Assembly (NCBI GenBank): GCA_029261835.1
Contig: JAJDAO010000030.1
Span: 21,308 to 85,307, forward strand
Source: Deltaproteobacteria bacterium
Lineage (GTDB): Bacteria > Myxococcota_A > UBA9160 > UBA4427
Reading direction: 5' to 3'
Length of the DNA stretch: 64,000 bases
Under the pieces are notes generated by a model, which saw nothing but the letters and a program-made list of their open reading frames with translations, had not been told where the DNA came from and did not search any database. The position numbers and the translations under genes were made by a program. Positions 10,190-34,424 of this stretch are shown piece after piece (the stretch's first letter is position 1; every line of letters begins with the position of its first letter).

Positions 10190-10235
10190 CGGTCTCTGGT
10201 GTCCCCTTCTGCCCCTCTAACCCTCCGCCCTCGCG

Positions 10236-11483
<1,248 letters not shown>

Positions 11484-11518
11484 GGCACTTCACCTTCCCA
11501 CCGACCAACGACAAGAAC

Positions 11519-12124
11519 CTAGTCGCGTTCCTCGGAGCCCGGACGTTGCACCATCACGTGATCCACGAGGCCGTACTCCATCGCTTCCTCGGCAGACATA
11601 TAATAGTCGCGCTCCGTATCCACCGCGATTTGCTCCACTGACTTTTCGGCGAGATCCGCAAGTATCACGTTCATCCTATCGCGCAGTTTCAGGATTTCCT
11701 TGGCCTGAATATCGATGTCGGCGGCCTGGCCACGGGCGCCACCCATCGGCTGGTGGATCATCACCCGCGCGTTGCTGAGAGCCGTACGCTTGCCGGCCTC
11801 GCCGGCGGCCAACAGCCAAGCGGCCATCGACGCCGCCTGGCCAATGCAGGTGGTGCTGATGTGGGGGCGCACGAACTTCATGGTGTCGTAGATCGCCAGC
11901 CCCGCCGTGATCGAACCCCCAGGCGAATTGATATAGAGGTGAATGTCGTGGTCCGGATCCTCGGCCTCCAGGAAGAGCAGCTGGGCGACAACGACATTCG
12001 CCACGTCGTCGCTGATCTCGGTGCCGAGGAAGATCACGCGGTCGCGTAGCAGACGCGAGTAGATATCGAAGAAGCGCTCACCGCGCTGACTCTGCTCGAT
12101 TACATACGGTATGACCGCCATCAA
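11519..12124 (-). CDS. clpP: ATP-dependent Clp protease proteolytic subunit ClpP
   Basis: 201 aa with [35 protein letters not shown] and GQAASMAA (catalytic Ser), located upstream of clpX. Confidence 0.97.
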
Positions 12125-12221
12125 TCGGCTCCGCAGTCGTCGCGCCTCATCATCAGAATCCCAGGCGCTTCGCTCTCCCGGCAGAACCTGGGCAGCGCCG
12201 CGTCCAGTAGAGTGCTCGACT

Positions 12222-12254
12222 CTTCTCTCACGTCTTTCTCACGTCTCTCTCACG
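12222..12254. repeat. three tandem 11-bp direct repeats about 100-130 nt upstream of clpP
   Basis: Plus strand reads CTTCTCTCACG TCTTTCTCACG TCTCTCTCACG. On the clpP coding strand this is CGTGAGAGAGA CGTGAGAAAGA CGTGAGAGAAG. The CTCACG core recurs with an exact 11-nt period. Confidence 0.7.
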
Positions 12255-12508
12255 GCTCAGCCGCTGATCATCGTCTCGCTCGGCCGCTTCCCAACCGGAT
12301 CGGGTCCTCAACCTTCTAAACCGGCTGGATCACCCGGGCGTGGCACCCCCTGCCAACGCCGCAGCTCAATCCCTAGTCTCAGCCAGTGCGCGGAGCTTTG
12401 CAAGACACTCACCGGGGGCCGAATGCGCGCCTGACGGCCAGTCTCACTGGGAAGCTTCTCGAAAGAAGTTCTGAACTTCGCTGCCTTGCAAGCAACTTTG
12501 CTCCCAGG

Positions 12509-13846
12509 TCAGCCCTGGTCGCTCTCCTCTTCTCCCGCTTCGATCTCTTCGATCTTCGCCTGGGAGGCAAGGAGTGAGAATGCACGTTCGTTTCTCAGCT
12601 CAATCTCGATCGCGCCGAGCCAGCCCTGCTGAAGCGCCATGTTGCGCAGGCGTGCAGGCTCCATCCCCTGCGCTTCGGCCATCTCGCAGACACGCGCCTC
12701 GACATCTTCCTCACTCACACTAATCCCCTCAGCAGTCGCCACCGCATCGAGCAAGAGCCCCTCGCGCACACGGCGCTCGGCCGAGGGGCGCCCCTCCTCC
12801 TGCATGCGACTGAGCTGTCTCTGAAGGGCCTCGTCAGGCACCTTGCCCTGGAACTGGCTGTGCATCGACTGCATCTGACTCTGGAGCTGTCGCTCGACCA
12901 TGCCCGGCGGAACTTCGAAGCTGCTGAGCCCGACCAACGAGTCCATCAGGGACTTGTTCAGCACGCCCTCCGCCTCTACTCGGCGGCGCTGCGCGAGGTC
13001 CGAACTGATGCGCTCGCGCATCTCGTCCAGGGTTTCGAAGTCGCCGAGATCCTTTGCGAAGTCGTCGTCGAGTTCGGGAAGCTCGCGCCTGCGCACGGCG
13101 ACGATATGGCACTCGAAAACGGCCTGCTTCCCGCGCAAGGGCTCGGGGCCGTAGTCGTCGGGCAGCGTGACCTCAACCTGTCGATCCTCACCCGCTGTGG
13201 CACCAACGAGCTGCTCCTCGAAGCCCGGCACCATGCCGCTCGAGCCGATCTCGACATCCATGCCCTGGCCGCTGCCACCGGGAAAGACCTCCCCATCGAC
13301 GCGTCCGACGAAGTCGATCGTCACGACGTGGCCGTCGGTGGCCTCGGCGCCCTCTTCCTCTTCGGCAAGTCGCGCGTTCTTCTCCCGCAGACCCTCGAGC
13401 TCACTGTCGACATCTTCGTCCGTCACCCGGACGACCGGGCTGCGGGCCGCCAGACTGCTGAACTCAGGCAGCTCGATCTGCGGCTTCACCTCGATGCGAG
13501 CCGTGTAGCGGAAGGCCTCGCCATCTTGAAGTCGATCCGGGGCAATGTCGGGCTCCACAACGGGCTCGATCTCGGCCTGCTCGATCGCGGCGGGCAGCGT
13601 CTCCGAGACCAGCGCTCGCTCGATCTCACCCGACATGTTCGCACCGTACATCCGCTCGAGCACCGAGCGCGGCACCTTGCCCGGCCGGAATCCCTTCACG
13701 CGAGCCGTGCGCTTCAAATCGCTGTAGGCGCGATCGAACGCTTTGCTCACGCGAGAGGCCTGCACCTCCACGCTGAGGTTTCGAACGACGGGGCTCGCCT
13801 CGCTGCACTCGACATTGATGTCGCTGTTCGTAGCTGTACTCGCCAT
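12509..13846 (-). CDS. tig: trigger factor (ribosome-associated peptidyl-prolyl isomerase)
   Basis: The ORF-track entry 12509..14044 is trimmed to the internal ATG at 13846. MASTATNSDINVECSEASPVVRNLSVEVQASRVSKAFDRAY...GFRPGKVP matches the trigger factor N-terminus. The gene sits directly upstream of clpP-clpX-lon. Confidence 0.93.
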   Translation of the reverse strand: MASTATNSDINVECSEASPVVRNLSVEVQASRVSKAFDRAYSDLKRTARVKGFRPGKVPRSVLERMYGANMSGEIERALVSETLPAAIEQAEIEPVVEPDIAPDRLQDGEAFRYTARIEVKPQIELPEFSSLAARSPVVRVTDEDVDSELEGLREKNARLAEEEEGAEATDGHVVTIDFVGRVDGEVFPGGSGQGMDVEIGSSGMVPGFEEQLVGATAGEDRQVEVTLPDDYGPEPLRGKQAVFECHIVAVRRRELPELDDDFAKDLGDFETLDEMRERISSDLAQRRRVEAEGVLNKSLMDSLVGLSSFEVPPGMVERQLQSQMQSMHSQFQGKVPDEALQRQLSRMQEEGRPSAERRVREGLLLDAVATAEGISVSEEDVEARVCEMAEAQGMEPARLRNMALQQGWLGAIEIELRNERAFSLLASQAKIEEIEAGEEESDQG

Positions 13847-14113
13847 GCTCTGGGGTCCTTGTCTTGCGGGGGCGGAAACAACTCTGTGGCTGCCGGCCGC
13901 TCCCCGGGGCCGGCTCGAGCCATGCCCAATCCACGCTCGTCCGCCGGAGCGGCCGCAGCATAGCTCCGCATGCTGTCGGGCGCACAAATCGGCCTCGGGC
14001 GGGCGATGTTGCTCCACGGGCGGTCCGGGCCGATACGTCCTCAATCACAGGCGGCGTAATTCCGATCCCCAGATGAGGCCCCGGCCCCGTTCGCCGCCCG
14101 CCAGGAACAGGCA

Positions 14114-14509
14114 ATGAAGGTCCTGATCGCAGACGACTCCCACTCATCCCGCCTGCTGCTGGAGCGGGCCCTGCAGAACTGGGGCTACGAGGTGATCGCC
14201 GTCGCGGACGGGCTGCAAGCCGTGGCGCGTCTGGCCGACCCGCAGATCGAACTCGCCATCATCGACTGGATGATGCCGGGCCTTGACGGCCCATCGGTCT
14301 GTCGCCATATCCAGAGCCTCCCACGCACCGTCTATACGATTCTCCTCAGCGGCCGTGACAGCGACGAGGATCAGGCCGAAGCACTGCAGCTCGGGGCCAG
14401 CGATTACATGGTCAAACCCTTCCGAGCCTCGCTGCTGCGCGCTCGACTGCAGGCAGGCGAGCGCATGCTACGGCTCGAGCGGCGACCCGAAGGCCAGCGA
14501 GAGAGCTAG
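14114..14509 (+). CDS. single-domain response regulator (CheY-like receiver)
   Basis: 131 aa: MKVLIADDSHSSRLLLE...ELAIIDWMMPGLDG...ILLSG...DYMVKPF, with the DD, D and K receiver signature residues. Confidence 0.9.
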   Translation: MKVLIADDSHSSRLLLERALQNWGYEVIAVADGLQAVARLADPQIELAIIDWMMPGLDGPSVCRHIQSLPRTVYTILLSGRDSDEDQAEALQLGASDYMVKPFRASLLRARLQAGERMLRLERRPEGQRES

Positions 14510-14606
14510 TCGCCAGACGACGCCGTGGCCAGCATCGCACGGGACGTCGCTGGCGCGACCCAGCACGTCGGGGCTGCGAGCCAGCTCACACGCGCGCAGG
14601 AATCGA

Positions 14607-15155
14607 TCAACGGACTCGCGTCTTGACGCGCGACTCGCTGCAGTACTGTCTGGCGTACTCCGCCAGGCTCCACTTGTGTGTCAGAGACGTCGCGACTTGG
14701 CGCGCTTCGACGGGATCAAACGGCTTCTTCAAGATGAGGAGCTGGTCGAGCTTTCCCAGGCGCTCGATGGCCACTTGCCAGGAGTCGTCCGACGAGGCCG
14801 TGCAGATCGCCACCTGAAGATCGGGATCGTCCTGCCAGATCTTCTCGATGGTCTGGATTCCATCCCAACCCGGTGGCATGCGAACGTCGACGAATGCCAT
14901 GGCGAACGGGACCCCCTTCTCACGGGCATCCTTGGCCATGCGCCAACCGGCCTCGCCCTGCGTGGCCGACTCGATCTCGAATGCGATGCGAAGAGAAAGT
15001 CGCTCGGGCTCCCCGAGCGACGCGCGGGCGGGCGAAACTGGCCCGCTGTGCCGTGTACCCGCCACGCCCAGGATTCGTCGAAAATCCTCGTGGATGCCCG
15101 CGTTGTCATCGACGACCAGCACGCGGCGATTGATCATCCCTTCATCGAGCGTCAT
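14607..15155 (-). CDS. response regulator receiver protein (receiver with an internal insertion)
   Basis: VLVVDDNAGIHEDF...FVDVRMPPGWDGIQT...ICTASSD...ILKKPFDP. The start is set at ATG 15155 (alternative 15137), because the longer track ORF 14607..15473 reads through the tRNA-Leu gene. Confidence 0.85.
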   Translation of the reverse strand: MTLDEGMINRRVLVVDDNAGIHEDFRRILGVAGTRHSGPVSPARASLGEPERLSLRIAFEIESATQGEAGWRMAKDAREKGVPFAMAFVDVRMPPGWDGIQTIEKIWQDDPDLQVAICTASSDDSWQVAIERLGKLDQLLILKKPFDPVEARQVATSLTHKWSLAEYARQYCSESRVKTRVR

Positions 15156-15354
15156 GCGGGCGCCCCCAAGCGATACGTTGCCTGTGGATCGCTGTATCGG
15201 ACGAATCGCCGCGCGCCTCAAGAGCGATTCGCAAACGTCATGAAGCAAGTGAGCGACTCGCGGCCGGCCGCAGAGGTTAGGGGCTTCACCGCAAGGTCCG
15301 GTGGATTGAATCGCCCCGGCGTACGAGCTTCTGCCGGGCAATCGGCATGCGCGG

Positions 15355-15440
15355 TGGTGCCGGGGACAGGACTCGAACCTGCACGTCCAGAGGACGGTGG
15401 CTCCTAAGGCCACTGCGTCTACCGATTCCGCCACCCCGGC
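15355..15440 (-). tRNA. tRNA-Leu (anticodon TAG), type II with long variable arm, CCA encoded
   Basis: Minus strand: GCCGGGGTGGCGGAATCGGTAGACGCA GTGGC CTTAGGA GCCAC CGTCCTCTGGACG TGCAGGTTCGAGTCCTGTCCCCGGCACCA. Confidence 0.92.
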
Positions 15441-15507
15441 GAATAGCGCGAACGGCAACATCGTAGCGATCACGCGGCCGTGGAAAAAGATCGCTCGCTA
15501 TGCGGGC

Positions 15508-15583
15508 TGGTGAGCGCGCGGGGAATCGAACCCCGAACCTAGGGATTAAGAGTCCCTTGCTCTGCCAATTGAGCTACGCGCCC
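15508..15583 (-). tRNA. tRNA-Lys (anticodon CTT), CCA encoded
   Basis: Minus strand: GGGCGCG TA GCTC AATTGGCA GAGC A AGGGA CTCTTAA TCCCT AGGTT CGGGG TTCGATT CCCCG CGCGCTC A CCA. Confidence 0.92.
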
Positions 15584-15632
15584 GGGCGGACATTAGCCGC
15601 CCTGGGTGCGGAGGCAAGCCCTCAGCGCCCGC

Positions 15633-18600
15633 TCATGAGCCGCTCTCGCCGCATCCGCCACCGCCCGGCGTTTCCACTCGCAGCCGGTCACCCGCGGCGA
15701 GTTCGAGCGAACATTTGCCGGGCAGAACCTCACGTTCGCCAGCGCTGCGCTGCACGAAATTGCGTCCGGTGGCGCCCGGCGCGCCACCTGCCATCCCCCA
15801 AGGCGCCACGTCGCGCCGCTCTGTCAGCAGCGTCGCGGTGACGGGCGCGAGGAAGCGGTACTGGCGTATCAAACCGTCGCCCCCGGTGCGCCTACCCGCA
15901 CCCCCGGAGCCCCGACGCAGTGCGAACTCCTCCAGGCGCACGGGATAGCGGGCCTCCAGCACTTCGGGATCGGTGATCCGCGTGTTCGTCATGTGACTGT
16001 GGACGCCGCACGCTCCGTCGAAGTCGGCGCCCGCGCCCGCGCCGCCGCCGATGGTTTCGTAGTAGCCGAAATCCGCGTTGCCAAAAGCGACGTTGTTCAT
16101 CGTTCCCTGGCTGGCCGCCGCCAGCCCGAGCGCTCCCAGCAGTACATCGACGACGCGCTGCGAAGTCTCGACGTTGCCCCCGACCACCGCGGATCCGGCG
16201 GGCGGATCGAGCAGTGATCCACCGGGGATGTGGATCTCCACGGGCTCCAGACAGCCGCCGTTCAGGGGGATGCGCTCGGCGACGAGTGAGCGCAACACGT
16301 AGATCACGGCGGCCTGAACCACGGCGGGCGGCGCGTTCAGATTGTGTCGAGCGGCGGAGCCAGTGCCGGCGAAGTCGACGAGCATGCGACCCCCCTCCAC
16401 CTTCAGCCGAACGCAGACGGGTGTTCCATCATCGAGCCGGTCTTCGAAGCAATGCTCGCCATCCGGCAGCCTGGCGATCTCTCGCGACACCTTGTCTGCC
16501 GACGCGCGCTGCAGCTGGCTCATCGTCACCGACACGGCGGTGAAGCCCTGCTCCTCGACGAAGTCACACAGCAGGCGCTCACCCGCGCGATTGGCCGCCA
16601 CCATGGCGACCAGATCGGCGAGATTATCGTCCGGACAGCGGGCGGGATAGCGCGCACTGGCGAGCAGACTTCGCACGCGTTGCTCGTCGAAGTGCCCGCG
16701 AGCGACGAGCTTGAAGGCGTGAAACACGACGCCCTCTTCCTCTAGACAATGCGAGTCGGCGGGCATCGAGCCCGGCGTGATGCCACCCAGATCCGCGTGG
16801 TGGCCGCGACTGGCGACGAAGAAGTCCGGATCACCCGATCCCGCGACGAAGACCGGCGTCACGAGCGTCACATCGGGCAGGTGTGATCCGCCTTCGAAGG
16901 GGTCATTGGTCATCACGACGTCGCCCGGGGCCAGGTCCGGCACACGCTCGCGCACGGCCCTCACGGTCGCACCCATGGCGCCGAGGTGTACGGGGATGTG
17001 GGGCGCGTTGGCCACCAGGCCGCCCCGGCCATCGAAGACCGCGCAGGAGTAGTCGAGGCGCTGTTTGATATTGGTCGACACGGCTGTGTTGCGAAGTGCC
17101 GCGCCCATCTGCTCGGCCATCGACATGAAGCGGTTGCCGAAGACCTCCAGCCGCACCGGATCCGCTCGCTCGAGATCGCGCGCGACCTGGCCGCGAGCAC
17201 CCTCGACGTCGCGCAAGACGAGGACCGCCTCGTCGTCGACGCGGAGGCGAAAGCCGGGATCGACCACGACGGTGCCCGTCTGCTCCAGCACGACCACCGG
17301 TCCATCGATCTCGCAGCCTGCTATGAGCACCTCGCGCTCGTAGATCGGCGCCAACACGCGCCCGCTCCCGGGAAACCAGATCGACGCGCGCCGCAGCGGT
17401 GTGGGGGCCGACGAGGGGCGGGTCGGATCTGACGTGAGGCCGCGGTCCGGCATGCTGCCCTGCGCCGCTGGGGCGACGCAGCGAACGCGGGCGGTCACGA
17501 TCTCCACGCGTCGATCGGGTCGCGTATAGCCAAAACGCCTGCGGTGCTCCTCGCCGAAGATCCCAGCCCAGCTCCACGACTCGCGCCCGGGCACCTCCAC
17601 CGCCGGCTCTCGGATGGAGAGAGGCATCTCACTCCCGACGTAGCGCAAGTCGAGCCAGCGCTCACTCGCGACTCCGGGGCAATTGGCCTCCTCCGCCCGC
17701 AGCGCGTTGCGCCCGCGCTGCTCGAGTGTGGTCAGCATCGCTTCGACGCTCGCGGGCAGCCCGCAGCCGTCACTCGGGAGCAGCACGCGGCCGGCATCGC
17801 GCTGCCCGTCCCAGGTGACATCCGCCACGCCGATCCCATAGGCGGAGAGCAGACCCGCGAGCGGGTGTTGCAAGATCGTGCGAATGCCGAGCATTCGAGC
17901 GATGGCGCAGACGTGCTGCCCGCCGGCGCCGCCGAAGCCGACCAGGACGTGGTCGCGCGGATCGACGCCACGCGCAACGGAAACCTGCTGGATCGCCTGG
18001 GCCATGCTCGCGTTGGCGATCTCCACGAATCCGGCGGCGAGCTCGTCCTGGGTCATCTCGAAGCCCGACTGTGCGAGACGCTGTCGCAGCCGAGCGAGCT
18101 CGGCCACGACCGGCTCCGGCTCCACAGCGAATGGAAAGCGATCTGGCTGCACGCGCCCCAGTGCGAGATTGACATCGGTCAGCGCAAGCGCGTGCGCGAC
18201 GGGCCGGCCGCCTTCGTCGCGACGGCCATAGCACAGCGGCCCCGGATCGGAGCCCGCACTCTCGGGCCCGACCGTGAGTCTGAAGTCATCAAAGCGGCAA
18301 AGTGAGCCACCCCCCGCCGCCACCGTGTGAATGCGCAGCATGGGCGAGCGCAGGCGCACGCCGGCCACCACCGTCTCGAAGGCGCGCTCCACCTCACCGT
18401 CGACGATCAGCGATACGTCGGTGGACGTGCCTCCCATATCGAAGCCAATTGCGCGCGCGAAGCCCGCGCGGGCCGCCACGCGGGCGGCCGCCACGACACC
18501 GCCGGCCGGTCCCGAGAGCAGCGCCGTCGGACCGCGAAAACGCGCCGCGTCCGTCAGGCCACCCGACGACTGCATGAACCGTAGCCGTGAGCCCGGCATC

Positions 18601-19361
18601 GCCTCGGCCAGGTGAGCCACGTGAGCGCTCAGCAGCGGCGTCAGATAGGCATCTGCTGTCGTCGTCTCGCCGCGAGCCAACAGTCCCAGCTCGCGGGCGA
18701 TCTCGTGAGAGCACACGACATGGGAGAAGCCGAGGCGCCGCGCAATCTCGGCGATGCGCAGCTCGCTCTCCGGATATGCGTAGGCGTGGATCATCAGCAC
18801 GGCGAGCGAGCGAGCACCGGCTTCGTGCGCGGCTCGCAACTCGTGTTGCAGCTGCTCCTCGTCGAGCTGCGAAACGACCTCAGCTTGCGCCGTAACCCGC
18901 CCGCCGCACTCGATTACAGCGCTGTGAAGCGGCGGGGCCTTTCGGATATCGAGCTCGAACAGGTCTGGGCGCTGCTGTGTGCCGATGGCCAGTACATCGC
19001 CGAGACCGCGGTCGGCCACGAGACAGGTCTGGACGCCGCGGCGCTCCAGCAGCGCATTGGTCGCAACGGTCGAGCCCAGCTTCACGCTGCAGGGGGGAAG
19101 CTCGGCGCCCGGCTCGATCACGCCTTCTCGCGTCAGGATCTCGCGAACGCCCTCGACCGGAGCGGAGTCGGAGGAGAGCAGCTTGGTCGTTCGCAGGCTC
19201 CCGTCCGGTGCGCGTGCGATGCAGTCCGTGAAGGTGCCGCCCCGATCGAGCCAGAACTCCCAGCGGCCATCGGCCGCCTCGCCGCCCCTGCGCACTCGCT
19301 CCCCTTTCGGCCCAGTCGGCCCAGTCGGCCCAGTCGGCTCAGTCACTCTCTTGTTTCCCAA
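15633..19361 (-). CDS. 5-oxoprolinase / hydantoinase, fused HyuA-HyuB type (ATP-hydrolysing)
   Basis: 1242 aa. The N-terminal half has [16 protein letters not shown] and FDMGGTSTD (hydantoinase A). The C-terminal half has the hydantoinase B/oxoprolinase signature ([19 protein letters not shown]). The N-terminus carries a (PTG)x3 repeat. Confidence 0.9.
19311..19337. repeat. perfect 9-bp x3 tandem repeat (CCCAGTCGG) inside the 5' end of the oxoprolinase ORF
   Basis: Encodes [14 protein letters not shown] on the minus strand, with degenerate copies flanking it on both sides. Confidence 0.85.
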
Positions 19362-19476
19362 TCAATTTCAGTGATTTATCGAGCTAATTGAGAATCTGGA
19401 TGAGATCTCTCCGGCATTGCAGAACAGGATCTGAGATGGGCCCTGGCCCCACTCCGCCCCGCCGCGTCGCCCGCTG

Positions 19477-21099
19477 CTACCGCCGCAGCAGCGCAGCGGC
19501 CCGATCCGTCAATCGCCGCAGCGTTTCCCGCATGATCTCATCACCCAGCCAACGCGTACACAGCAACGCAACGCCGACGAAGACGGCACCACCCAGCGCC
19601 AGATCCAACATCGCCCCCGACATGCCCGCGGCACCGGAACGAGTGAGTGCGCCGAGCAGCGCGGCGGGAACGGCCAGCGCGACCGAGCGCGCAGTGGTCG
19701 CCGCCAGGACCGAGAGCTTGGGGCCGCCATAGCGCAGGCGTGCCCAGACGAGCGTCGCCACGGCGTTGAGCGAGATCGCGGCGACACCGGCAGCCGCCAG
19801 GCCCTCGGCGGCGAAGCGCTCTCCCATCGCCAGGTAGAGGGGAATCACCGCGAGCGCGATGACGGTTCCCAGCAGCATCGGGCGCCAGGTATCCCCGCGT
19901 GCAAAGAAGGCACGTACCGCCACCTGCTGGCTCACCCATCCCGGCACTGCCAGCGCGAGCACCGACAGCACCGAAGCCACGCGGGCGGCGTCGGCGCCCG
20001 TGAAGTGACCACGCCGGTACATCACTTCGACCAGGGGCTGCGAGAAGACGCAGACCGCTGCCGCGCAGAAGACCGCTACGACCAGGGTCGCCTGCAGCGT
20101 GCGCACGAGTGTCTGCTCGAGCTCCTGCTCGCGCCCTTCCGCGTGCAGTCGCGACAGCGTCGGCAGTGCAGCCGCCGCGACCGCCTGCCCGATGACGGCA
20201 ACCGGCGCCATCATCAGGCGGCGGGCGAAGCCCAGCGTCGCGACGACACCGACGCCCAGCGTCGCCCCGAACCAGCGCTCGTACCACTCGTCGACCGTGG
20301 TGAGGGAAAGCCCGAGCATCAGGGGAAGTGCCAGCCAGAGGTAGCGGCGGAAGCGCGCGTCGAAGGGGGCCACGCGCAGCCCGACCGGCCCGATGTGGCG
20401 CATATCCCAGATTGGATAGGCCCAGGTACCGACGATCGCGCCAACGAGTGCGCCCCAGGCGAAGCCCTCGACGCTGCCCGTGGCGAGCCCACCTGCGATC
20501 ACACCTCCGTTGTAGAGAAGTGGCGCCGCCGCCTGAGCGCCAAAACGCCCGTGGGCCATCAATACAGCGCGGACGATGCCGCCCGTGACAAAGAAGATCT
20601 GGCCGGGCAAGACGATGCGGGTGAGGCGGACCGTGAGCGCGCGGGTCTCGGCGTCGAAGCTGCTGAATTGCAGAGCGATCAGCCGCTCGGCGTTGAGCCA
20701 GAGCAGCGCGCTCAGCAGCAGCACCAGGGCGCCGAGTGTCCCGAGCACGGTGCGAAAGAGCTCTTCCGCCTCGGCTTCACCCCGCTCGCCGCGGACACGC
20801 AGATAGAGCGGCGTGAATGCGATCGCCAGCGCACCGCCGGCCAGCAGATAATTCAGCAGATCGGGCAGCTGGAAGGCGGCATAGTAGGCGTCGGTCTCGC
20901 GTCCGGCCCCGACCTGTGCGGCCAGCACCATCTCGCGCACGAAGCCCATGACGCGCGACAAGAAGATGCTGGTGGCGAGCAGCAGCGCTGCCGCTCCGAG
21001 GTGTCTGCCCCCGAGCGGTGCGGCGTCGGATCGACTCTTCCGGTCGGCGGCCACGTCTCCCCCTTCGCCCATTATGCGGTGTGGGAGCGCTCGGGCCAA
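19477..21099 (-). CDS. murJ: lipid II flippase MurJ (MviN family)
   Basis: 540 aa and polytopic. The N-terminal signature ATSIFLSRVMGFVREMVLAAQVGAGRETDAYYAAFQLPDLL is typical of MurJ. The start may be a few codons downstream. Confidence 0.9.
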   Translation of the reverse strand: MARALPHRIMGEGGDVAADRKSRSDAAPLGGRHLGAAALLLATSIFLSRVMGFVREMVLAAQVGAGRETDAYYAAFQLPDLLNYLLAGGALAIAFTPLYLRVRGERGEAEAEELFRTVLGTLGALVLLLSALLWLNAERLIALQFSSFDAETRALTVRLTRIVLPGQIFFVTGGIVRAVLMAHGRFGAQAAAPLLYNGGVIAGGLATGSVEGFAWGALVGAIVGTWAYPIWDMRHIGPVGLRVAPFDARFRRYLWLALPLMLGLSLTTVDEWYERWFGATLGVGVVATLGFARRLMMAPVAVIGQAVAAAALPTLSRLHAEGREQELEQTLVRTLQATLVVAVFCAAAVCVFSQPLVEVMYRRGHFTGADAARVASVLSVLALAVPGWVSQQVAVRAFFARGDTWRPMLLGTVIALAVIPLYLAMGERFAAEGLAAAGVAAISLNAVATLVWARLRYGGPKLSVLAATTARSVALAVPAALLGALTRSGAAGMSGAMLDLALGGAVFVGVALLCTRWLGDEIMRETLRRLTDRAAALLRR

Positions 21100-21123
21100 T
21101 GCGCCCCGTCACGCACCCGCATC

Positions 21124-22236
21124 TCAGGACGGGTTGTGCTCGCGCCAGATCTCGCCGCTCCAAGCCTCGACGACGAAGTCATCCCCCTCTCGACCACGGG
21201 CGAATGGGTAGTCGAGGGGCACCTTGCCGTGGGGCGTGTCGAGCACGTACTGCGGAATCGCGAACCCGCTCGTGCGCCCGCGCAGCTCGCGGAAGATGTC
21301 GATGCCCCGCTCGATTGGGACGCGGAAGTGGGCCGTCCCCTCGAGCAGCTGGGCCTGATAGCAGTAGTACGGGCGCACGCGCAGCCGAACCAGAGCTTCA
21401 CCGAGCGCCTTCATGACGGCGGGGTCATCATTGATGCCTCGCAGCAGAACGCTCTGATTGCCCAGTGGCACGCCTGCCCGCAGCAGGCGATCGCAGGCAG
21501 CGGCCGCCGCCTCGCTGATTTCGGCCGGATGGTTGAAGTGCGTGTTCAACCAAACCGGGTGGTGGCTCTCCAGCACGCTGCAGAGGTCGTCGGTCACGCG
21601 ATAGGGCAGCGTCACCGGCAAGCGGCTTCCCAGCCGAATGATCTCCACATGCGGGATCGCGCGCAGCCGGCCGAGCAGCCAGTCCAGGCGCCGGTCCGAG
21701 AAGACCAGTGGATCACCGCCGGTGAGCAATACATCGCGAATCTGCGGTGTCTGCGCGATCCAGTCGAGCGCCTGCTCGAGCTCGCGCTCCAGCATGCCCG
21801 ATCTCGGCTCACCCACCATGCGCTTGCGCAGGCAGAAGCGGCAGTAGAGTGCGCACTCACTGTTGACGCAGAACGCGACACGGTCCCGGTAGACCCGGAT
21901 CACGTTCCTGACCGGCGAGTGCGCGACCTCGTCCAGCGGATCGGCCCGGCCCGCCGGGTCCTCCAGCTCGAGCGCCGCGGGCACCACCTGACGGCGCAGC
22001 GGGCAAGCGGGATCGCGCCGATCCATCAGCGACGCGAAGTACGGCGTGATGACGAAGCGAAAGCGACGCGACAGGTCGCGAATCGCACTCTCCTCGCTGG
22101 GCGTCAGATCGATCCATTGTGACAGCGCCTCGGCCGTGCGGATGCGGTTACGCATCTGCCAGGCAAAGCTGCGCCAGTCGACGGGGTCGACGCCATTGGG
22201 AATGCACTCGGGCCTGATGATCTCAGCTCGACTCAT
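21124..22236 (-). CDS. KamA-family radical SAM aminomutase (lysine 2,3-aminomutase-like)
   Basis: Radical SAM cluster motif CALYCRFCLRKRMVG (CxxxCxxC), with DVLLTGGDPL and RLGSRLPV. The start is taken at ATG 22236 (MSRAEIIRPE...). The track start at 22281 would overlap the upstream gene by 59 nt. Confidence 0.88.
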   Translation of the reverse strand: MSRAEIIRPECIPNGVDPVDWRSFAWQMRNRIRTAEALSQWIDLTPSEESAIRDLSRRFRFVITPYFASLMDRRDPACPLRRQVVPAALELEDPAGRADPLDEVAHSPVRNVIRVYRDRVAFCVNSECALYCRFCLRKRMVGEPRSGMLERELEQALDWIAQTPQIRDVLLTGGDPLVFSDRRLDWLLGRLRAIPHVEIIRLGSRLPVTLPYRVTDDLCSVLESHHPVWLNTHFNHPAEISEAAAAACDRLLRAGVPLGNQSVLLRGINDDPAVMKALGEALVRLRVRPYYCYQAQLLEGTAHFRVPIERGIDIFRELRGRTSGFAIPQYVLDTPHGKVPLDYPFARGREGDDFVVEAWSGEIWREHNPS

Positions 22237-23284
22237 GTGCGTCGCTCCGTAGCCGTGGGGCCAGGCGTTTGAGGCCCGCATCGATCACATCCGCAAGCAG
22301 CCCCGCGAGTGGACGCCCCTCGAGCTCGGCGAGTATGGCGAAACTTCCGTCCGCCGCGAAGGTCGGAAGTGGATTGATCTCCAGGAAGACGGGGCGGCCG
22401 TCTGGGTCGAGTCGAAAGTCGACGCGCGCGAAGTCGCGGCACTCGAAGAGCTGGTAGATGCGGCAGGCCAGCTCCTGCAACTCGCTCTCGAGTGATGCCG
22501 TGAGCTCACCGGGCAGGCAGTGCTCGAACACGCCTGGCGACGTGGCTGCCGATGCGGTCTCCAGGGCGTGTAGCCCTATGCGCGTACCGCTCTCAAGAGC
22601 CCGTTGCAGGACCGGTAGCGGGCGTGGCGGATCGTTTCCCACGACCGCCACTGTGTACTCGGCCCCGGCGAGAAAGATCTCCACGAGCGCCGGCTGCCGG
22701 TAGTCGCGCACAACGCGCGCGACCTCGCGCTCCAGCGCCGAACGGTTCTCAACGCGCGAGCTCGCTCGAATGCCCTTTGCACTGCCCTCCCAGCGCGGCT
22801 TCACGAAGAGCGGGAAGGGGCCGGGCAACGCGCCATGCGCCGCCTGCCGCGCCGAGCTCATCACACACTGAGGCACGACCGGCAGGCCATCGGCTGCCAC
22901 CGTGCGGCTCGCCCACGCCTTGTCGAGCGTCAGCGAGAGGGTGAGACCATCGGAGCCGAGACAGGGAACACCCGCCATCTCGAGCAGGCTCGGCGCCCAG
23001 GCCTCGCGATTGCGTGAACCGTGTCCCTCCGCGATGTTGAGCGCCACATCGATCGCTGGGAGTGCTGACCGACCGATCGCCTCGAGCAGCGAATGAGGCG
23101 ATCCCAGGCGCAGCGGGCGATGCCCCAGCTCGCAGATGGCCGCCTCGAGCACCTCGACCGTGCCGATTGGCTCGTACTCCACGTGGAAGTCCGGCGGGTC
23201 CGTGTCCCGACGCGGGTAGCTGTCGAACGTCTCGAAGACCAGCCCCACGACGAGTGGACCCCGACCGCTCGCTCGGAGTGCCAT
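22223..23284 (-). CDS. ATP-grasp ligase, D-alanine--D-alanine ligase-like
   Basis: 353 aa. The pre-ATP-grasp region has NIAEGHGSRNREAWAPSLLEMAGVPCLGSD. The ATP-grasp core has FPLFVKPRWEGSAKGI, ALVEIFLAGAEYTV and ARVDFRLDPDGRPVFLEINPLP. Confidence 0.8.
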   Translation of the reverse strand: MALRASGRGPLVVGLVFETFDSYPRRDTDPPDFHVEYEPIGTVEVLEAAICELGHRPLRLGSPHSLLEAIGRSALPAIDVALNIAEGHGSRNREAWAPSLLEMAGVPCLGSDGLTLSLTLDKAWASRTVAADGLPVVPQCVMSSARQAAHGALPGPFPLFVKPRWEGSAKGIRASSRVENRSALEREVARVVRDYRQPALVEIFLAGAEYTVAVVGNDPPRPLPVLQRALESGTRIGLHALETASAATSPGVFEHCLPGELTASLESELQELACRIYQLFECRDFARVDFRLDPDGRPVFLEINPLPTFAADGSFAILAELEGRPLAGLLADVIDAGLKRLAPRLRSDAHESS

Positions 23285-23387
23285 CGAATAGCGTCCTCAC
23301 TGCAGTGGCGACGTTAAGCAACTAGACTACTCGACTCACCACCCAGCCCGCTCGCGGGAAGGCACCCGGCAGACAGGGAGACAGTAG

Positions 23388-23876
23388 ATGACGACGAGGG
23401 CTGCCTGGCGGATCGCACGTGCTTGGCTCCCGGTCGGAATCTGGGCCACATTCATCTGGGGGCTGGGAAGCGACGCCTTCAGCAATCCGGAGACCTCGCG
23501 TATTCTTCGCCCGCTTCTCCAGTGGCTGATGCCCGAGCTCACACTTCGCGACCTGGCTCCCATGATCTTCTTCATCCGCAAGCTCGCGCATGCCACCGAG
23601 TACGGCGTGCTCGCGATCATCACGTTGCGGGCCATGATGCTCAGCACACGCGTCGCACTCACACGGACCATTCCGATCGTCCTCGCCATCGGTGCGCTGC
23701 TGGCGGTGGCGGACGAGTGGCGGCAAGCGACATCAGCCGCGCGTACGGGCTCGGGCACAGATGTGCTGCTGGACGTGAGCGGCATCGGGCTCGTCGTGCT
23801 CGCCGCGCTGGTGATCGAGATTCGCTTCGGCCGGACGCCCTTCCGCACTCGTGATCCCGGCGGGTCGAACGCCTGA
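23388..23876 (+). CDS. VanZ-family membrane protein
   Basis: 162 aa with 4 hydrophobic segments. It has RKLAHATEYGVLA, ADEWRQ and TDVLLDVSG, which fit the VanZ-like pattern (H..EY, DE..Q, D...D/N..G). Confidence 0.7.
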   Translation: MTTRAAWRIARAWLPVGIWATFIWGLGSDAFSNPETSRILRPLLQWLMPELTLRDLAPMIFFIRKLAHATEYGVLAIITLRAMMLSTRVALTRTIPIVLAIGALLAVADEWRQATSAARTGSGTDVLLDVSGIGLVVLAALVIEIRFGRTPFRTRDPGGSNA

Positions 23877-24031
23877 GCCCACCACGGGATCGATGCGGAT
23901 CTGATAGGGTATGGGTCGGCTGATTCGAACCTCGGGCTCTTCGTGGGCACTGCGCCGCAGACGACGATGACATTGCTCCCCAGCGGCTTCTCCCCCTTGC
24001 GCGGGAGAGCCCGTCACGAGGCATTCCGGAC

Positions 24032-25723
24032 ATGAACGCGGCGCTCCTGGCCTGCCTCGTCTTCATCGGGTTCGCGCTTGGCTACCGCTACTACTCGCGC
24101 TTCCTGGCCCGGCGAGTCTTCGCTCTTCGCGCGGACGAGAGCGTCCCGTCGCGCGACTACGAGGATGGAATCGATTACCTGCCAACGAAGAGCCACGTGC
24201 TCTGGGGACACCACTTCGCCTCGGTAGCGGGCGCGGCCCCCATCGTCGGCCCCGCCATTGCCGTCATCTGGGGCTGGCTGCCCGCTCTGATCTGGGTCAC
24301 GCTCGGCACCCTCTTCATGGGCGCGGTTCACGACTTCGCCGCGCTGGTGATCAGCGCCCGACACCGTGGACGCTCGATCGGCGAGATTGCCGGACACGTG
24401 ATGGCGCCCCACATCCGCACGCTCTTCCTGCTCGTCATCTCGCTGCTGATCTGGGTCGTGCTCGCGGTCTTCGCCTTCATCATCGGAACGCTCTTCCACT
24501 CGACTCCGAGCTCGATCTTCCCGATCAACGTCCAGATCATCATCGCGATGCTGCTGGGCTGGCTGGTCTACCGCCGCCGGATGGCGCTCTTCGGTCCATC
24601 GCTGCTCGGGTACGCGGTACTCCTGCTCGCGATCTTCTACGGCCAGCCCTTCGCCGAGGCATTCCCCTTCATCGGCGAGATCTCGGTCTACACCTGGGTC
24701 TGGCTGCTGCTCCTCTACTCATTCGCCGCCTCGGTGCTGCCGGTCTGGCTATTGCTCCAGCCGCGCGACTACTTGAACTCACACCAGCTCGTCACCGGCC
24801 TGGTCGTGCTGTCCGCCGGACTGATCGTGCTGCATCCGCCGGTGGTCGCGCCCGTGTTCAACCCCAATCCCGAAGGCGCGCCTTCGATGATCCCCTTCCT
24901 CTTCGTCACCATCGCCTGCGGCGCCATCTCCGGCTTTCACGGGCTGGTTTCCTCGGGCACGACCTCCAAGCAGCTCGCCTGCATGACCGACGCGCGTCCC
25001 ATCGGCTACGGGGGCATGCTGGCCGAGGGCATGCTCGGCCTGATGGCTGTGCTGGCGGCCACCGCCGGCTTCGCGAGTTCGAGCGAGTGGTGGAGCCACT
25101 ACGAGAGCTGGGGGGCCGCCAACGGGCTGGCGGCCAAGCTCGATGCCTTCGTGTCGGGCGGCGCCACCTTCGTCGCTTCACTGGGCATCCCAGTCGAAAG
25201 CGCTCGAACTTTCATGGCCGTCATGGTCATCGCCTTCGCGGCCACTTCGCTCGACACCGGAGCGCGAATTCAGCGGCTGGTGATCGCTGAGCTGGCCGAT
25301 GCCTACGGAGTGCGGGCCCTGACCAACCGCTTCGCCGCCGGTGCTCTGGGAATCGCAGCGGCGCTGCTGCTGGCCATCACGCAGGGCGGGGGCAAGGGCG
25401 GTCTCGCACTCTGGCCGCTATTCGGTACCACGAACCAGCTCGTGGCGGCCGTCACTCTCCTCTTGGTCTCGATCTGGCTGCAGCGACACGGCCGACCCGT
25501 CGTCTACACGCTGACCCCCATGCTGCTGGTCGGCAGCGTTACGGCCTGGGCGATGCTGGGGAACCTCGTCGACTACTACTCGAACTTCACGGATCTCTGG
25601 TTGCTGGCGCTCTCGGGCACGTTGATTCTCGCACTGGACGTCTGGATCACGCTCGAAGGACTGAGGTTGCTGCTCCGCGAACGCGGCAGCGTCAAGCCGG
25701 CGGTGGCGCAAGCACCCTTCTGA
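24032..25723 (+). CDS. cstA: carbon starvation protein A family transporter
   Basis: 563 aa and polytopic. LWGHHFASVAGAAPIVGPAIAVIWGWLPALIWV...GAVHDF and ACGAISGFHGLVSSGTTSKQ are CstA hallmarks. Confidence 0.9.
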   Translation: MNAALLACLVFIGFALGYRYYSRFLARRVFALRADESVPSRDYEDGIDYLPTKSHVLWGHHFASVAGAAPIVGPAIAVIWGWLPALIWVTLGTLFMGAVHDFAALVISARHRGRSIGEIAGHVMAPHIRTLFLLVISLLIWVVLAVFAFIIGTLFHSTPSSIFPINVQIIIAMLLGWLVYRRRMALFGPSLLGYAVLLLAIFYGQPFAEAFPFIGEISVYTWVWLLLLYSFAASVLPVWLLLQPRDYLNSHQLVTGLVVLSAGLIVLHPPVVAPVFNPNPEGAPSMIPFLFVTIACGAISGFHGLVSSGTTSKQLACMTDARPIGYGGMLAEGMLGLMAVLAATAGFASSSEWWSHYESWGAANGLAAKLDAFVSGGATFVASLGIPVESARTFMAVMVIAFAATSLDTGARIQRLVIAELADAYGVRALTNRFAAGALGIAAALLLAITQGGGKGGLALWPLFGTTNQLVAAVTLLLVSIWLQRHGRPVVYTLTPMLLVGSVTAWAMLGNLVDYYSNFTDLWLLALSGTLILALDVWITLEGLRLLLRERGSVKPAVAQAPF

Positions 25724-29704: not shown

Positions 29705-30433
29705 ATGCCGACTCCTTCGCGAGTCATGATCGTGAGATCTCTAGATGGAAGCTCGCAAGAGCTCGCCGAGCGCATGGCTGAGCTGGAGATCGAGCCGCTG
29801 CTCGTCAGCGACCTGGACGAGGCCCAGCAGACCCTCGAGGAGCGGCTGGTTCCGATCACGGGCATTCTGATCCCGACGGACCACACGACCGCGAATCTCA
29901 AGCGCCGAGTGAAACGGCTCCAGAGAGCGGGCCCCGCTTCCGGACTCACCTTCGTCTCTGTCGGCAAGACACCGACGCCGAAGGCACGCCGGGAGCTGGC
30001 CGCGGCGGGACTCACCGTCGCTCTGTGGGAGCCCTATGACGCGGCCACCCTGCGCTTCCAGCTCAACCGCACTCTGAGCCACTGTCACAGCGGCGATCAG
30101 CGCGCGATGCCGCACGTCCCAACGGACCTGCTCGCGAGAGTCTTCGTCGGCGGACGTACCAAGCAGGCGGTGGTCTTCAGCCTCTCCGATGAAGGCGCCT
30201 TTCTCGACACACCGCGCGCGAGCATGGATGGCGCGCGCATCGAAATCGAGCTGTGCCTGCCCACCCGTCCGGTGCAGCTCCAAGCGGAGGTCCTCTACGC
30301 CAATGTGCCTGGCAACCTGCAGCGTACGAATCTGCCCGTGGGCATGGGCGTGCGCTTCAGAGATGTCGCTGTCGCCGATATCGCGAGCATCCGCAGCTAC
30401 GTCGAGGAGCGCCTGCGCGAGCTGAACGTCTGA
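29705..30433 (+). CDS. PilZ-like domain protein with N-terminal pseudo-receiver-like region
   Basis: The C-terminal beta-barrel-like region ARVFVGGRTKQAVVFSLSDEGAFLDT...GMGVRF resembles PilZ. The RRxxxR motif is degenerate (QRAMPHV). Confidence 0.55.
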   Translation: MPTPSRVMIVRSLDGSSQELAERMAELEIEPLLVSDLDEAQQTLEERLVPITGILIPTDHTTANLKRRVKRLQRAGPASGLTFVSVGKTPTPKARRELAAAGLTVALWEPYDAATLRFQLNRTLSHCHSGDQRAMPHVPTDLLARVFVGGRTKQAVVFSLSDEGAFLDTPRASMDGARIEIELCLPTRPVQLQAEVLYANVPGNLQRTNLPVGMGVRFRDVAVADIASIRSYVEERLRELNV

Positions 30434-31888: not shown

Positions 31889-32749
31889 TCAGGGCTCGTC
31901 GGCCAGCGCCGACAGATCCGCTCGAACCCCGCGTCGTGCGTCGTAGCGTTTCCCAAAGGCCAGAATCGCGCGCGCCACCGCCTCGACGATGGCGTCACGG
32001 TAGCGCCCCCGCCGCAGCGCCTTCTCCTCATTCGGGTTGGAGAGGAAGCCGATCTCGATCAACGAAGCCGGCATCTGCACGCCCATCAGCACCACGAAAG
32101 GCGCCTGCTTGACACCGCGCGTGCTGCCCGTACCGAGATCTGCCAGCTCGCCCTGAACCAGCTTCGCGAACTCGCTCGATTCGATCACGTGCTCGGTCGC
32201 GATCATGTCCCCGAGCAGCGCCATCAGCGGATCGTTTCTCGTGGTCGCAGCGCTGTCCCGCGTGAGCGCCTGGTTCTCGCGCGCCGCCACCTGCCGCGCC
32301 ATGTCGTCGCTCGACTCCAGCGACACGAAGTAAGTCTCGATGCCCCGAGGCTTGTCAGTGGCCGCCGAATTCGCGTGAATCGAGACGAAGAGATCGGCCC
32401 GAGCATCGTTCGCCACCGAGGTGCGAACTTCGAGCGGAACGAATTCGTCGCTTCCCCGCGTAAGCGTCACCCGCAGACCGGCCGCATCTAGTCGCTCAGC
32501 CAGCCGATTGCACACATCCAGCACCAGATCTTTTTCCACCAGGCCGCGCGGCCCGCGCGCACCGTGATCCTCGCCGCCGTGCCCCGCGTCGATCACCACA
32601 GAGTCGAAGTGATCGCGCGACGGCTCGGCCGACACGGCCGGCATGCCAATCGGCAGCACGACCGCAACCGCAAGCCACGGCCCTCCCCAGCGACCAAAGC
32701 CGTGCCGCCTCACCCGAGAGGCCCTCCTTCCGGGCCCAATCCAGCTCAC
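31889..32749 (-). CDS. N-acetylmuramoyl-L-alanine amidase (Amidase_3, AmiC-like)
   Basis: Signal-like N-terminus, then VVIDAGHGGEDHGARG, FVSIHANS and SLIEIGFLSNPNEE. Confidence 0.9.
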   Translation of the reverse strand: MSWIGPGRRASRVRRHGFGRWGGPWLAVAVVLPIGMPAVSAEPSRDHFDSVVIDAGHGGEDHGARGPRGLVEKDLVLDVCNRLAERLDAAGLRVTLTRGSDEFVPLEVRTSVANDARADLFVSIHANSAATDKPRGIETYFVSLESSDDMARQVAARENQALTRDSAATTRNDPLMALLGDMIATEHVIESSEFAKLVQGELADLGTGSTRGVKQAPFVVLMGVQMPASLIEIGFLSNPNEEKALRRGRYRDAIVEAVARAILAFGKRYDARRGVRADLSALADEP

Positions 32750-32955: not shown

Positions 32956-33126
32956 TCAAGCCAGCCCGTATTCTCGAATCTTCCTGCGCAGGCTTCGCCC
33001 GCTGATCCCCAGGGCACGCGAGGCGCGAGCTCGGTTGCCATCCCCCTTCGCCAGCGAGCGCTGGATGGTGCTCTTCACCGCCCCAACACGAAGCCGCACT
33101 GACGCCCGTTCACGCACTGTCATCAT
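32956..33126 (-). CDS. small Fis-type helix-turn-helix DNA-binding protein (56 aa)
   Basis: Not in the ORF track, being under 60 aa. The minus-strand ORF reads MMTVRERASVRLRVGAVKSTIQRSLAKGDGNRARASRALGISGRSLRRKIREYGLA*. The GNrxrAaxxLGISrxsLxRKixxYGL pattern is the Fis/NtrC C-terminal HTH. Its ATG overlaps the 3' end of the upstream PilZ gene by 17 nt. Confidence 0.6.
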   Translation of the reverse strand: MMTVRERASVRLRVGAVKSTIQRSLAKGDGNRARASRALGISGRSLRRKIREYGLA

Positions 33127-33808
33127 TCTCGGGATGGCCTGTGCGCACGCGTTTTCTCAGCGCCAGTCTCTGAACTTCGCAGATGTGTCGGACGACGGCG
33201 TCACGGTCCCCTTCGTCGATCGCCGTGAAGCGAAGGGCCAGCCTCCGACTGCCCTCCGGCTCCATGAGCTGCGCGCTGTAGACCACGCTCGCCAAGGCGG
33301 TCACCTGGCGCACTGGCGTCTCGGGCAGGAGCAACTCGACCCTGACCGGGTCCCCTGTCTGGAAGGACTCGCGCGTTTCGCTCCGCAGCCCGGAGCCCGA
33401 GAGCACGAGGTTGCTTCTGTCCGCCTCACCGATCGGTCGTGTCGGCTCGTGGCCCGCTCCGTCGAGCAGCAGGTTCAGCTTCTCCTCGATTCTCCGCAGA
33501 GCGGCGGACAGCGCCGGGTCGGCCAACACACCCAGCTCCGGCTTGGGCGTGTTGATCTCCCGCTCGAGAATCCTCACCTCCTCCTCACCGAGCGGCGTCA
33601 ATCTCAGCGGCAGCCTCGTCGCCACACGGAAGTAGGCCCGTCGCTCGCTCCCCGCATGCGCGTCGCTCGGCGAAGCATCGCGATCATCTTCTGCCACGCA
33701 CGCCGTCGGCTGGACCGTCTCCGCCAACTCTTGCGGGGCCAACGGCCGCGGTCGTCGATACAACTCGGGCATCGTCACTCCCCCCGGTCTTCGGACCACC
33801 ATGAACAC
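33110..33808 (-). CDS. PilZ domain protein (c-di-GMP receptor type)
   Basis: ERRAYFRV carries RRxxxR. A downstream LVLSGSGLR approximates (D/N)xSxxG. The C-terminus LALRFTAIDEGDRDAVVRHI is typical of PilZ C-termini. Confidence 0.65.
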   Translation of the reverse strand: MFMVVRRPGGVTMPELYRRPRPLAPQELAETVQPTACVAEDDRDASPSDAHAGSERRAYFRVATRLPLRLTPLGEEEVRILEREINTPKPELGVLADPALSAALRRIEEKLNLLLDGAGHEPTRPIGEADRSNLVLSGSGLRSETRESFQTGDPVRVELLLPETPVRQVTALASVVYSAQLMEPEGSRRLALRFTAIDEGDRDAVVRHICEVQRLALRKRVRTGHPENDDSA

Positions 33809-33902
33809 GAACCGGCTCGCCGCGCTCGCTTGCAGCCCGCTTCAGTCCTCTCCGCGAGCGCATTCCGGCACCCGCACGATCGCATTGCCTTGATTCATGG
33901 AT

Positions 33903-34376: not shown

Positions 34377-34424
34377 GGCGCCCCTCCCGCGTGAGCCCGC
34401 TTGCGGCGGGCCTGTCGCCTCACC

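Follow-up and report, generated by a model that had tools for sequence, protein, structure and literature searches.

What does an ATP-grasp ligase resembling D-alanine–D-alanine ligase (Ddl) do in one co-directional string with a KamA-family aminomutase and the lipid II flippase MurJ? The question is raised by a 64,000-nucleotide stretch of DNA (hereafter the window; GC content ~65%) on contig JAJDAO010000030.1 of the Deltaproteobacteria bacterium assembly GCA_029261835.1 (GTDB lineage Bacteria; Myxococcota_A; UBA9160; UBA4427). The closest relatives of the window are metagenome-assembled genomes (MAGs), labelled mostly Myxococcota or Deltaproteobacteria. Three minus-strand genes are concerned, encoding a Ddl-superfamily ligase that appears to represent a distinct subfamily (22223..23284; 353 aa in the open reading frame (ORF) listing), a radical S-adenosylmethionine (SAM)/pyridoxal phosphate (PLP) 2,3-aminomutase of the KamA family (21124..22236; 370 aa, or 385 aa from an alternative start at 22281), and MurJ (19477..21099; 540 aa from a TTG at 21099). 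Our comparisons suggest a two-enzyme module of ligase and aminomutase that makes a soluble product, MurJ being a bystander. For this reading as a whole, we estimate a probability of about 0.5.

The junction between ligase and kamA is unusually tight. The ligase gene starts at an ATG (23284) with GAGGA upstream and stops with a TGA at 22225-22223, and kamA starts with an ATG at 22236, giving an overlap of 14 nt (22223..22236, minus strand). A GGAG motif lies 8 nt before the kamA ATG, inside the ligase gene. No Shine-Dalgarno-like motif precedes the longer kamA start at 22281, and 22236 is also the start used in a public protein, P0121 (370 aa), which matches with 100% identity and coverage. The kamA stop (TGA, 21126-21124) lies 24 nt from the earliest possible murJ start, the TTG at 21099, and an in-frame ATG at 21072 would widen this gap to 51 nt. 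These coordinates, the overlap and the gap, on which the initial annotation based its description of an operon-like arrangement, were verified by the ORF listing and by direct reading of the sequence. In the more distant locus L089, the overlap of ligase gene and kamA is 1 nt; because the genes overlap both there and in the window, translational coupling of ligase and kamA is suggested. A promoter and terminator scan of positions 14000-24200 found no terminator-like sites in the intergenic gaps of the string, with the sites in this high-GC genome being no commoner than in shuffled sequence, which gives the scan little weight.

Adjacency of the two genes extends across lineages. A scan with the ligase alignment, covering one genome per species, found relatives in 278 GTDB species; 80 loci were kept, and kamA directly follows the ligase gene in 62 of the 72 with enough downstream DNA. 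A second scan, seeded with the KamA clade in metagenomes, gave 80 loci with a GC content of 0.34-0.75. Among the 67 with upstream DNA, a same-strand ligase lies directly upstream of kamA in 46, and within 0.7-1.9 kb or just downstream in 7. Adjacency was counted from tblastn coordinates, as the crude ORF caller, based on GC at third codon positions, missed or over-extended some genes. The identities of ligase and KamA to their window counterparts co-vary (r=0.89, n=117 loci), and the other neighbours differ between lineages (an uncharacterised protein with two transmembrane segments, TrkH/TrkA, a major facilitator superfamily (MFS) transporter, a GntR regulator and a cyclase).

In some lineages the two enzymes are one protein. 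The 695-aa P0303 joins a ligase of the wider family (residues 2-328) to a KamA (345-691). The same architecture, with the ligase N-terminal and KamA C-terminal, recurs in P0391-P0397, P0399 and P0400, which are 690-718 aa long and 47-78% identical to P0303. Together with P0303 they represent at least ten protein clusters from NCBI, ENA, JGI and Logan assemblies, and the KamA half of P0400 is 56% identical to the window KamA. On the source contigs checked for the fusion loci, the fused ORF is unbroken. Because the fusions come from independent assemblies and their ORFs are continuous on the contigs, the fusion is a conserved architecture and not an assembly error. Moreover, wider-family ligases adjoin KamA enzymes of the Asp293 type (numbering of the lysine 2,3-aminomutase structure 2A5H) in two loci. 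One (L085) combines KamA with a tandem ligase and a ligase beside an amino-acid permease, and the other (L086) is an ablAB-like set of two ligases, a GNAT protein and KamA. A 475-aa protein in L085 had no Pfam match. Ligase and KamA very probably work together, since their genes stay adjacent in lineages where the other neighbours differ, and no fewer than ten protein clusters fuse them.

The contrary explanation is that the gene order is simply inherited and that the enzymes serve separate pathways, with KamA acting, for example, in amino-acid catabolism. Either gene can occur without the other, and synteny in the lineage of the window extends over all 20 kb of the region, so conservation there proves little. 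Inherited order does not account well for the conserved fusions, for pairs in lineages sharing no other neighbours, or for overlapping reading frames that suggest translational coupling in the window and in L089. We regard the absence of any functional link as highly improbable.

The position of murJ has a different distribution. The gene could be assessed in 57 of the 62 loci with a ligase-kamA pair; it lies directly next to kamA in 50 and 1.3-2.5 kb further in 3, and is absent from 4. Within the lineage, the loci with murJ displaced or missing beside the pair are L009, L027, L030 and L069, and L033, L035 and L078. The lineage is syntenic from an extracytoplasmic function sigma factor gene via cstA, vanZ, the three genes, an oxoprolinase gene, tig and clpP to clpX, and the same synteny is found in L089, whose ligase falls into a separate cluster from that of the window at 50% identity. 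In the KamA-seeded loci, MurJ follows KamA in ten only, all with a KamA at least 70% identical to that of the window and thus from its own lineage, and in 0 of ~55 loci with a KamA 55-66% identical. The polytopic membrane proteins encoded within two genes downstream of KamA are those MurJ proteins, TrkH and an opposite-strand MFS transporter only. MurJ is probably a housekeeping neighbour and not part of the module, because it is absent beside KamA outside a lineage in which the whole region is syntenic. An argument for a three-gene operon from synteny within the Myxococcota lineage was rejected, since the unrelated tig, clpP, clpX and cstA are equally syntenic and conservation of an entire region cannot separate partners from inherited neighbours. 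The initial annotation had counted MurJ as a member of the unit and proposed conservation of the neighbourhood as a check. On that check the ligase-KamA pair stands across lineages, whereas the association with MurJ is limited to the lineage of the window.

The aminomutase belongs to the KamA family, as had been annotated. It passes the general family model TIGR00238 (333 bits, cut-off 199) and fails every subfamily model compared: glutamate 2,3-aminomutase (TIGR04368, 433.5 versus 650), lysine 2,3-aminomutase/AblA (TIGR03820, 411.5 versus 525.4), arginine 2,3-aminomutase (TIGR04468, 402.3 versus 600) and EpmB (TIGR03821, 245 versus 369.3), the last being the weakest of the subfamily matches. 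The LAM_C domain scores 24.6 bits, under its cut-off of 26.7, and most of the C-terminal domain is missing. Against the lysine 2,3-aminomutase of Clostridium subterminale (2A5H), the protein aligns at 372 bits (residues 16-363) and conserves the CxxxCxxC motif, Arg134, Asp330 and Lys337 of 2A5H; C128/C132/C135 and K338 of the window enzyme align with C125/C129/C132 and K337 of 2A5H and are invariant in the clade alignment. The differences are a Gly-rich loop ahead of the PLP lysine that is 2 residues shorter than in 2A5H, and a Gln in the place of Asp293 (Gln296 in the window numbering, with Asp333 and Lys338 corresponding to Asp330 and Lys337). The signature of Gln293, LDTPxGK and a short C-terminus was found in 58 of 58 neighbours in L001-L080, in L089 and L094 and in all fusions; Gln293 occurs in 77 of 77 KamA ORFs called among the metagenome loci. 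One 72% identical relative (P0219) carries the name arginine 2,3-aminomutase in a public record. Because the scores lie under the curated cut-offs and the defining residues differ, we place this KamA by sequence in a clade of its own, separate from EpmB, AblA/KamA proper and the glutamate and arginine enzymes.

The substitution bears on the likely substrate. We take Asp293 and Asp330 of 2A5H to hold the ε-amine of lysine, and the glutamate enzyme presumably carries Lys and Asn at positions 293 and 330. The Gln/Asp pair of the window enzyme matches neither. KamA would shift the α-amino group of an L-amino acid to C3, giving the β-isomer. Since Asp293 is replaced by Gln while Asp330 is kept, Asp333 could contact the side chain of the substrate with its carboxylate and Gln296 with its amide. 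The substrate would then not be glutamate and would probably be basic or polar, with a lysine-, ornithine-, arginine- or glutamine-like side chain. In this radical-SAM family, which is of mechanistic importance, a probable new substrate specificity could be recognised simply by the Gln293 signature. Three long-contig MAG loci have a frameshifted or cut-off kamA (L024 11050-12143, L027 11017-11940 and L036 11027-12059); these are probably errors of the assembly consensus and not real pseudogenes.

A short KamA relative next to an ATP-dependent ligase also recalls protein modification. EpmB, a KamA relative, makes the β-lysine that is attached to elongation factor P (EF-P), and the window enzyme is short like EpmB, having lost most of the lysine aminomutase C-terminal domain. 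The ligase could replace the EpmA step and attach the KamA product to a protein, such as an EF-P lysine or a ribosomal protein. Some ATP-grasp enzymes, including RimK, LysX and TTL, do modify proteins, and the pair is highly conserved, with housekeeping genes (tig, clpPX, lon and tRNA-Lys) around it. However, those enzymes activate a carboxylate of the protein and not a free amino acid, and the ligase looks like the Ddl type, which acts on small molecules, and unlike RimK, LysX or TTL. EpmA, in contrast to this ATP-grasp ligase, is a paralogue of lysyl-tRNA synthetase, and of the genes in the window and the loci that were scanned with Pfam, none resembled an aminoacyl-tRNA synthetase. No efp gene was found in the window or in 174 related loci (2.2 Mb). 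Placement in the EpmB clade with an EpmA/EF-P partner elsewhere, the outcome named at the outset as speaking against a new pathway, is not what the model scores and these loci gave. Modification of a protein by the pair appears very unlikely.

By predicted fold the ligase falls into the Ddl superfamily, but it is not recognised as Ddl itself. In Pfam it matches Dala_Dala_lig_C (PF07478) at 89 bits, in line with its first family call, while Dala_Dala_lig_N (PF01820) is undetected; its 120 closest homologues likewise match PF07478 only. All NCBIfam Ddl/Van models score far under their cut-offs (the best, PRK01372, 101.9 versus 243; TIGR01205, 99.6 versus 245.65). An AlphaFold2 model (mean predicted local distance difference test score 88.6) finds only Ddl, VanA and VanG among its fold matches in the PDB, with template modelling scores of 0.65-0.70 and identities of 18-26%, and the Foldseek probability against Ddl structures is 1.0. 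The ligase thus shares with these enzymes the three-domain ATP-grasp fold, the conserved lysines and the R-x-D and E-x-N motifs, and the same chemistry from acyl-phosphate to amide may be expected. In the alignment to 3R5F, the R-x-D and E-x-N metal/ATP motif is kept, and K162, R287, D289, E302 and N304 are invariant among the homologues aligned. The omega-loop is replaced: IGLHALETAS aligns with FYSYATKY of 3R5F, and the loop reads RIGLHALE against YxYxxKY in Ddl. Equivalents of the omega-loop residues Lys215-Tyr216 of DdlB are absent, an invariant IGxH motif standing in their place, and the N-terminus reads VFETFD...EYEP. Because the N-terminal signature and the omega-loop Lys-Tyr of Ddl are absent and the curated models are under cut-off, we do not regard the enzyme as Ddl proper. 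A merely divergent housekeeping Ddl was considered as well and is disfavoured by the absent N-terminal signature, the absent omega-loop residues and the fusions to KamA; we know of no pairing or fusion of Ddl with an aminomutase. A canonical ddl gene was not found in the 2.2 Mb of related loci.

The ligase subfamily belongs to a large family. Its homologues number 2870; among the 150 best listed representatives, ~12 clusters have the IGxH motif. When 1.84 billion cluster representatives were searched with a profile, 1243 clusters, defined at 50% identity, fell into the wider family at E<=1e-30, with tandem double ligases making up many of them.

Ddl ancestry is the first reason to think of the cell wall. 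The ligase could act on peptidoglycan precursors, making a D-Ala-X dipeptide or a side branch on the UDP-MurNAc-peptide, with KamA supplying a β-amino acid where it is present and the adjacent MurJ flipping the modified lipid II. In its strong form, this explanation makes the ligase the lineage's own D-Ala-D-Ala ligase and KamA unrelated. Its relatives of solved structure are Ddl, VanA and VanG only; murJ is one gene downstream in 50 of 57 loci and is still beside the ligase where kamA is missing; and a VanZ-like gene divergently adjoins the ligase in 42 of 75 assessable lineage loci. In Enterococcus faecium, an aspartate racemase and the ATP-grasp D-aspartate ligase Aslfm build the cross-bridge. 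That pair resembles the module in combining an enzyme for an unusual isomer with an adjacent ATP-grasp, and murJ, or murB in other MAGs, is nearby here. It differs in that the module's ligase lies in the Ddl branch and its cell-wall neighbours are lineage-specific. Nor do the undetected Ddl N-terminal domain, the missing Lys215/Tyr216 equivalents and the low scores against Ddl/Van models agree well with a cell-wall ligase. MurJ accompanies the pair only within one syntenic lineage, and elsewhere the KamA fusion and the pairings with GNAT, TrkHA and a permease are ill-suited to a housekeeping Ddl. Two chance murein neighbours are not very improbable among the ~10 context types inspected, and to our knowledge no β-amino acid occurs in peptidoglycan. 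We consider a role in peptidoglycan doubtful.

Several observations weigh against a soluble product of a two-gene module. In four MAG loci labelled Rokubacteria (L055 8521-11008, L062 8603-11011, L071 3749-6182 and L076 8572-11008), a ligase 61-63% identical to that of the window follows a MurB-like gene by 4-50 nt, which favours the cell wall. These loci carry an amidase and an AtzH-like gene after the ligase, have no kamA or murJ nearby and share no synteny with the window. Their identity is as high as that within the Myxococcota lineage, suggesting horizontal transfer or mislabelled bins. A fifth Rokubacteria-labelled locus (L028) also lacks kamA and murJ. Within the lineage of the window, an intact ligase gene is followed by murJ with no kamA between in three species (L014, L025 and L047), and the ligase likewise has no adjacent kamA in L022, L079, L091 and L093. 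No ligase is nearby in 14 of the 67 KamA-seeded loci. An adjacent KamA is therefore not required for this ligase subfamily to work. The MurJ, MurB and VanZ-like neighbours, together with the Ddl ancestry, are suggestive of the cell wall, although two murein neighbours are not significant for the number of contexts inspected, and each of the hints at an osmolyte rests on few loci. Lysine, Na+ and cyclic di-AMP riboswitches were not found by Rfam in the window at gathering thresholds, in an E-value scan of the region 5' of the ligase gene, or in 40 related loci.

Despite these points, a soluble, cytoplasmic product of the ligase-KamA module is favoured. The ligase would phosphorylate a carboxylate to the acyl-phosphate and then form an amide bond with the β-amino acid, which could provide either the acyl group or the amine. 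A β-amino-acid dipeptide or a short oligomer would result, and the tandem-ligase relatives may make longer products. A β-amino-acid ligation route had already been proposed in the initial annotation; the fusion proteins back this part and make it plausible, while its involvement of MurJ was not borne out. The closest analogy is AblA/AblB, in which a lysine 2,3-aminomutase and a β-lysine acetyltransferase make the osmolyte N-ε-acetyl-β-lysine. There too, a KamA-family aminomutase gene stands beside the gene of an amide-forming enzyme in a two-gene unit. The partner of AblA is an acetyl-CoA-dependent GNAT enzyme, whereas that of the module is an ATP-dependent, Ddl-like ligase; no GNAT was detected among the window genes scanned, and the only one, AblB-like, is in the distant L086. 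AblA also differs from the window KamA, which has Gln for Asp293 and scores 411 against 525 in the AblA model, and no salt-responsive element was found for the module. The EpmB/EpmA system is likewise similar in outline, with a short KamA-family enzyme supplying a β-amino acid to an ATP-dependent ligase. By sequence, the module would work in outline like both systems and is a member of neither.

By analogy with AblA/AblB, an osmolyte-type or nitrogen-rich solute would fit the product best. TrkH/TrkA potassium uptake genes come after the protein with two transmembrane segments that follows the pair in L112, L113, L116 and L118 (~9190-12660), and genes for a Na+/H+ antiporter, the cyclic di-AMP cyclase CdaA and an MFS transporter occur near the pair in other loci. 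The KamA-family genes ablA and eam are osmoprotectant genes, some of them under Na+ and cyclic di-AMP riboswitches (PMC9337991). There are thus hints for a compatible solute and for an envelope building block alike. On balance, we give a cytoplasmic solute even or slightly less than even odds and favour it over modification of peptidoglycan or of protein and over the lack of any link.

Both superfamilies are well known, and the curated models name each of the two proteins only to superfamily. The pairing itself is absent from the searchable literature: the open-access search, with subscription-only literature outside its scope, found no description of an aminomutase/ATP-grasp pair. This agrees with the earlier statement that the known KamA contexts do not include such a ligase. 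The module is not rare: 278 GTDB species have the ligase, the KamA clade was found on 395 stretches of metagenome DNA, and the wider family has more than 1000 ligase clusters at 50% identity. Among uncultured bacteria of marine, soil and saline habitats, a whole class of β-amino-acid metabolites may for this reason have gone unrecognised. An osmolyte would add to the short list of β-amino-acid solutes, and a product entering peptidoglycan would mean new wall chemistry. The natural fusions provide an experimental handle, as both activities are held in one construct.

A more speculative proposal, which we think rather unlikely, is that the ligase adds the KamA product to a peptidoglycan precursor, at the stem terminus or as a side branch, and MurJ exports it, or that the module makes natural β-peptides. 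If so, uncultured Myxococcota-related bacteria would have a β-amino-acid peptidoglycan of a type never described. In the softer version, β-peptides from the module and from the tandem-ligase relatives would be possible long-sought substrates of DmpA/BapA-type β-aminopeptidases. In L087 (8001-11126) and L088 (607-3732), the genes after a tandem double ligase of the wider family encode a Peptidase_S58 protein (the DmpA/BapA family, which includes β-aminopeptidases) and a 1170-aa GlmS-like protein; an unusual peptide could be made by the tandem ligase and broken down by the peptidase.

Further contexts were seen around the fusions and in other lineages. In L084 (2700-5808), the fusion P0400 is followed after 5 nt by a stand-alone LPG_synthase_C protein (127 bits), the domain with which MprF synthesises aminoacyl-phosphatidylglycerol; this single locus hints at aminoacylated lipids. 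Three fusion loci (L081 7959-9991, L082 704-1819 and L083 5022-7057) encode a 305-aa protein and a class I/II aminotransferase upstream; the aminotransferase gene ends 10-114 nt ahead of the fusion gene, and the 305-aa protein had no Pfam match. The protein with two N-terminal transmembrane segments follows KamA in 18 loci of other lineages and has no Pfam match either. As an alternative to TrkH/TrkA, it is followed by a metalloenzyme-superfamily gene and two EutN/CcmL microcompartment vertex genes, in loci including L115, L131, L132 and L147.

In the window, the neighbours of the three genes are as follows. MurJ itself is well supported, reaching 263.8 bits against a cut-off of 235.55 in the TIGR01695 equivalog model and 236 bits in the Pfam MurJ model, and its original assignment stands. 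Beyond murJ the co-directional string continues to its last protein gene, which encodes a fused HyuA/HyuB protein resembling ATP-dependent oxoprolinases and hydantoinases (15633..19361, minus strand; 1242 aa; four Hydantoinase A/B Pfam domains). The string is closed by tRNA-Lys(CTT) at 15508-15583 and tRNA-Leu(TAG) at 15355-15440, both on the minus strand and both called by ARAGORN and Rfam in agreement. The oxoprolinase-like gene follows murJ in most lineage loci. It overlaps murJ by 4 nt in L089 (11665-15255) and lies directly after kamA in L069 (12133-15711), and a stand-alone HyuB gene is directly upstream of a Gln293-type KamA gene in the unrelated, low-GC locus L130 (6304-7875). A link between this family of ATP-dependent lactamases and the ligase-KamA module is possible. 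Divergently upstream of the ligase gene are a small VanZ-like membrane protein (23388..23876, plus strand; 162 aa; Pfam VanZ 39 bits, cut-off 30) and CstA.

Other features of the window are as follows. An AmiC-type N-acetylmuramoyl-L-alanine amidase is encoded at 9 kb from the ligase gene, in a region (31889-32749 and 33110-35810, minus strand; 29705-30433, plus strand) that also encodes two PilZ-domain proteins, a FliO-like protein and a sigma-54 activator; neither the amidase nor these genes are linked to the pair. The longest ORF of a response regulator (14607-15473, minus strand) overlaps tRNA-Leu and its receiver domain begins at residue 165, so its true start should lie well downstream of 15355. 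A tRNA-Thr called by ARAGORN at 44593-44678 (minus strand), inside the ORF of a TonB-dependent receptor (43584-46307) and with no Rfam support at the gathering score, is probably a false positive. Three minus-strand ORFs with good coding statistics had no Pfam match (4387-6228, 46350-47105 and 47606-48286; 613, 251 and 226 aa).

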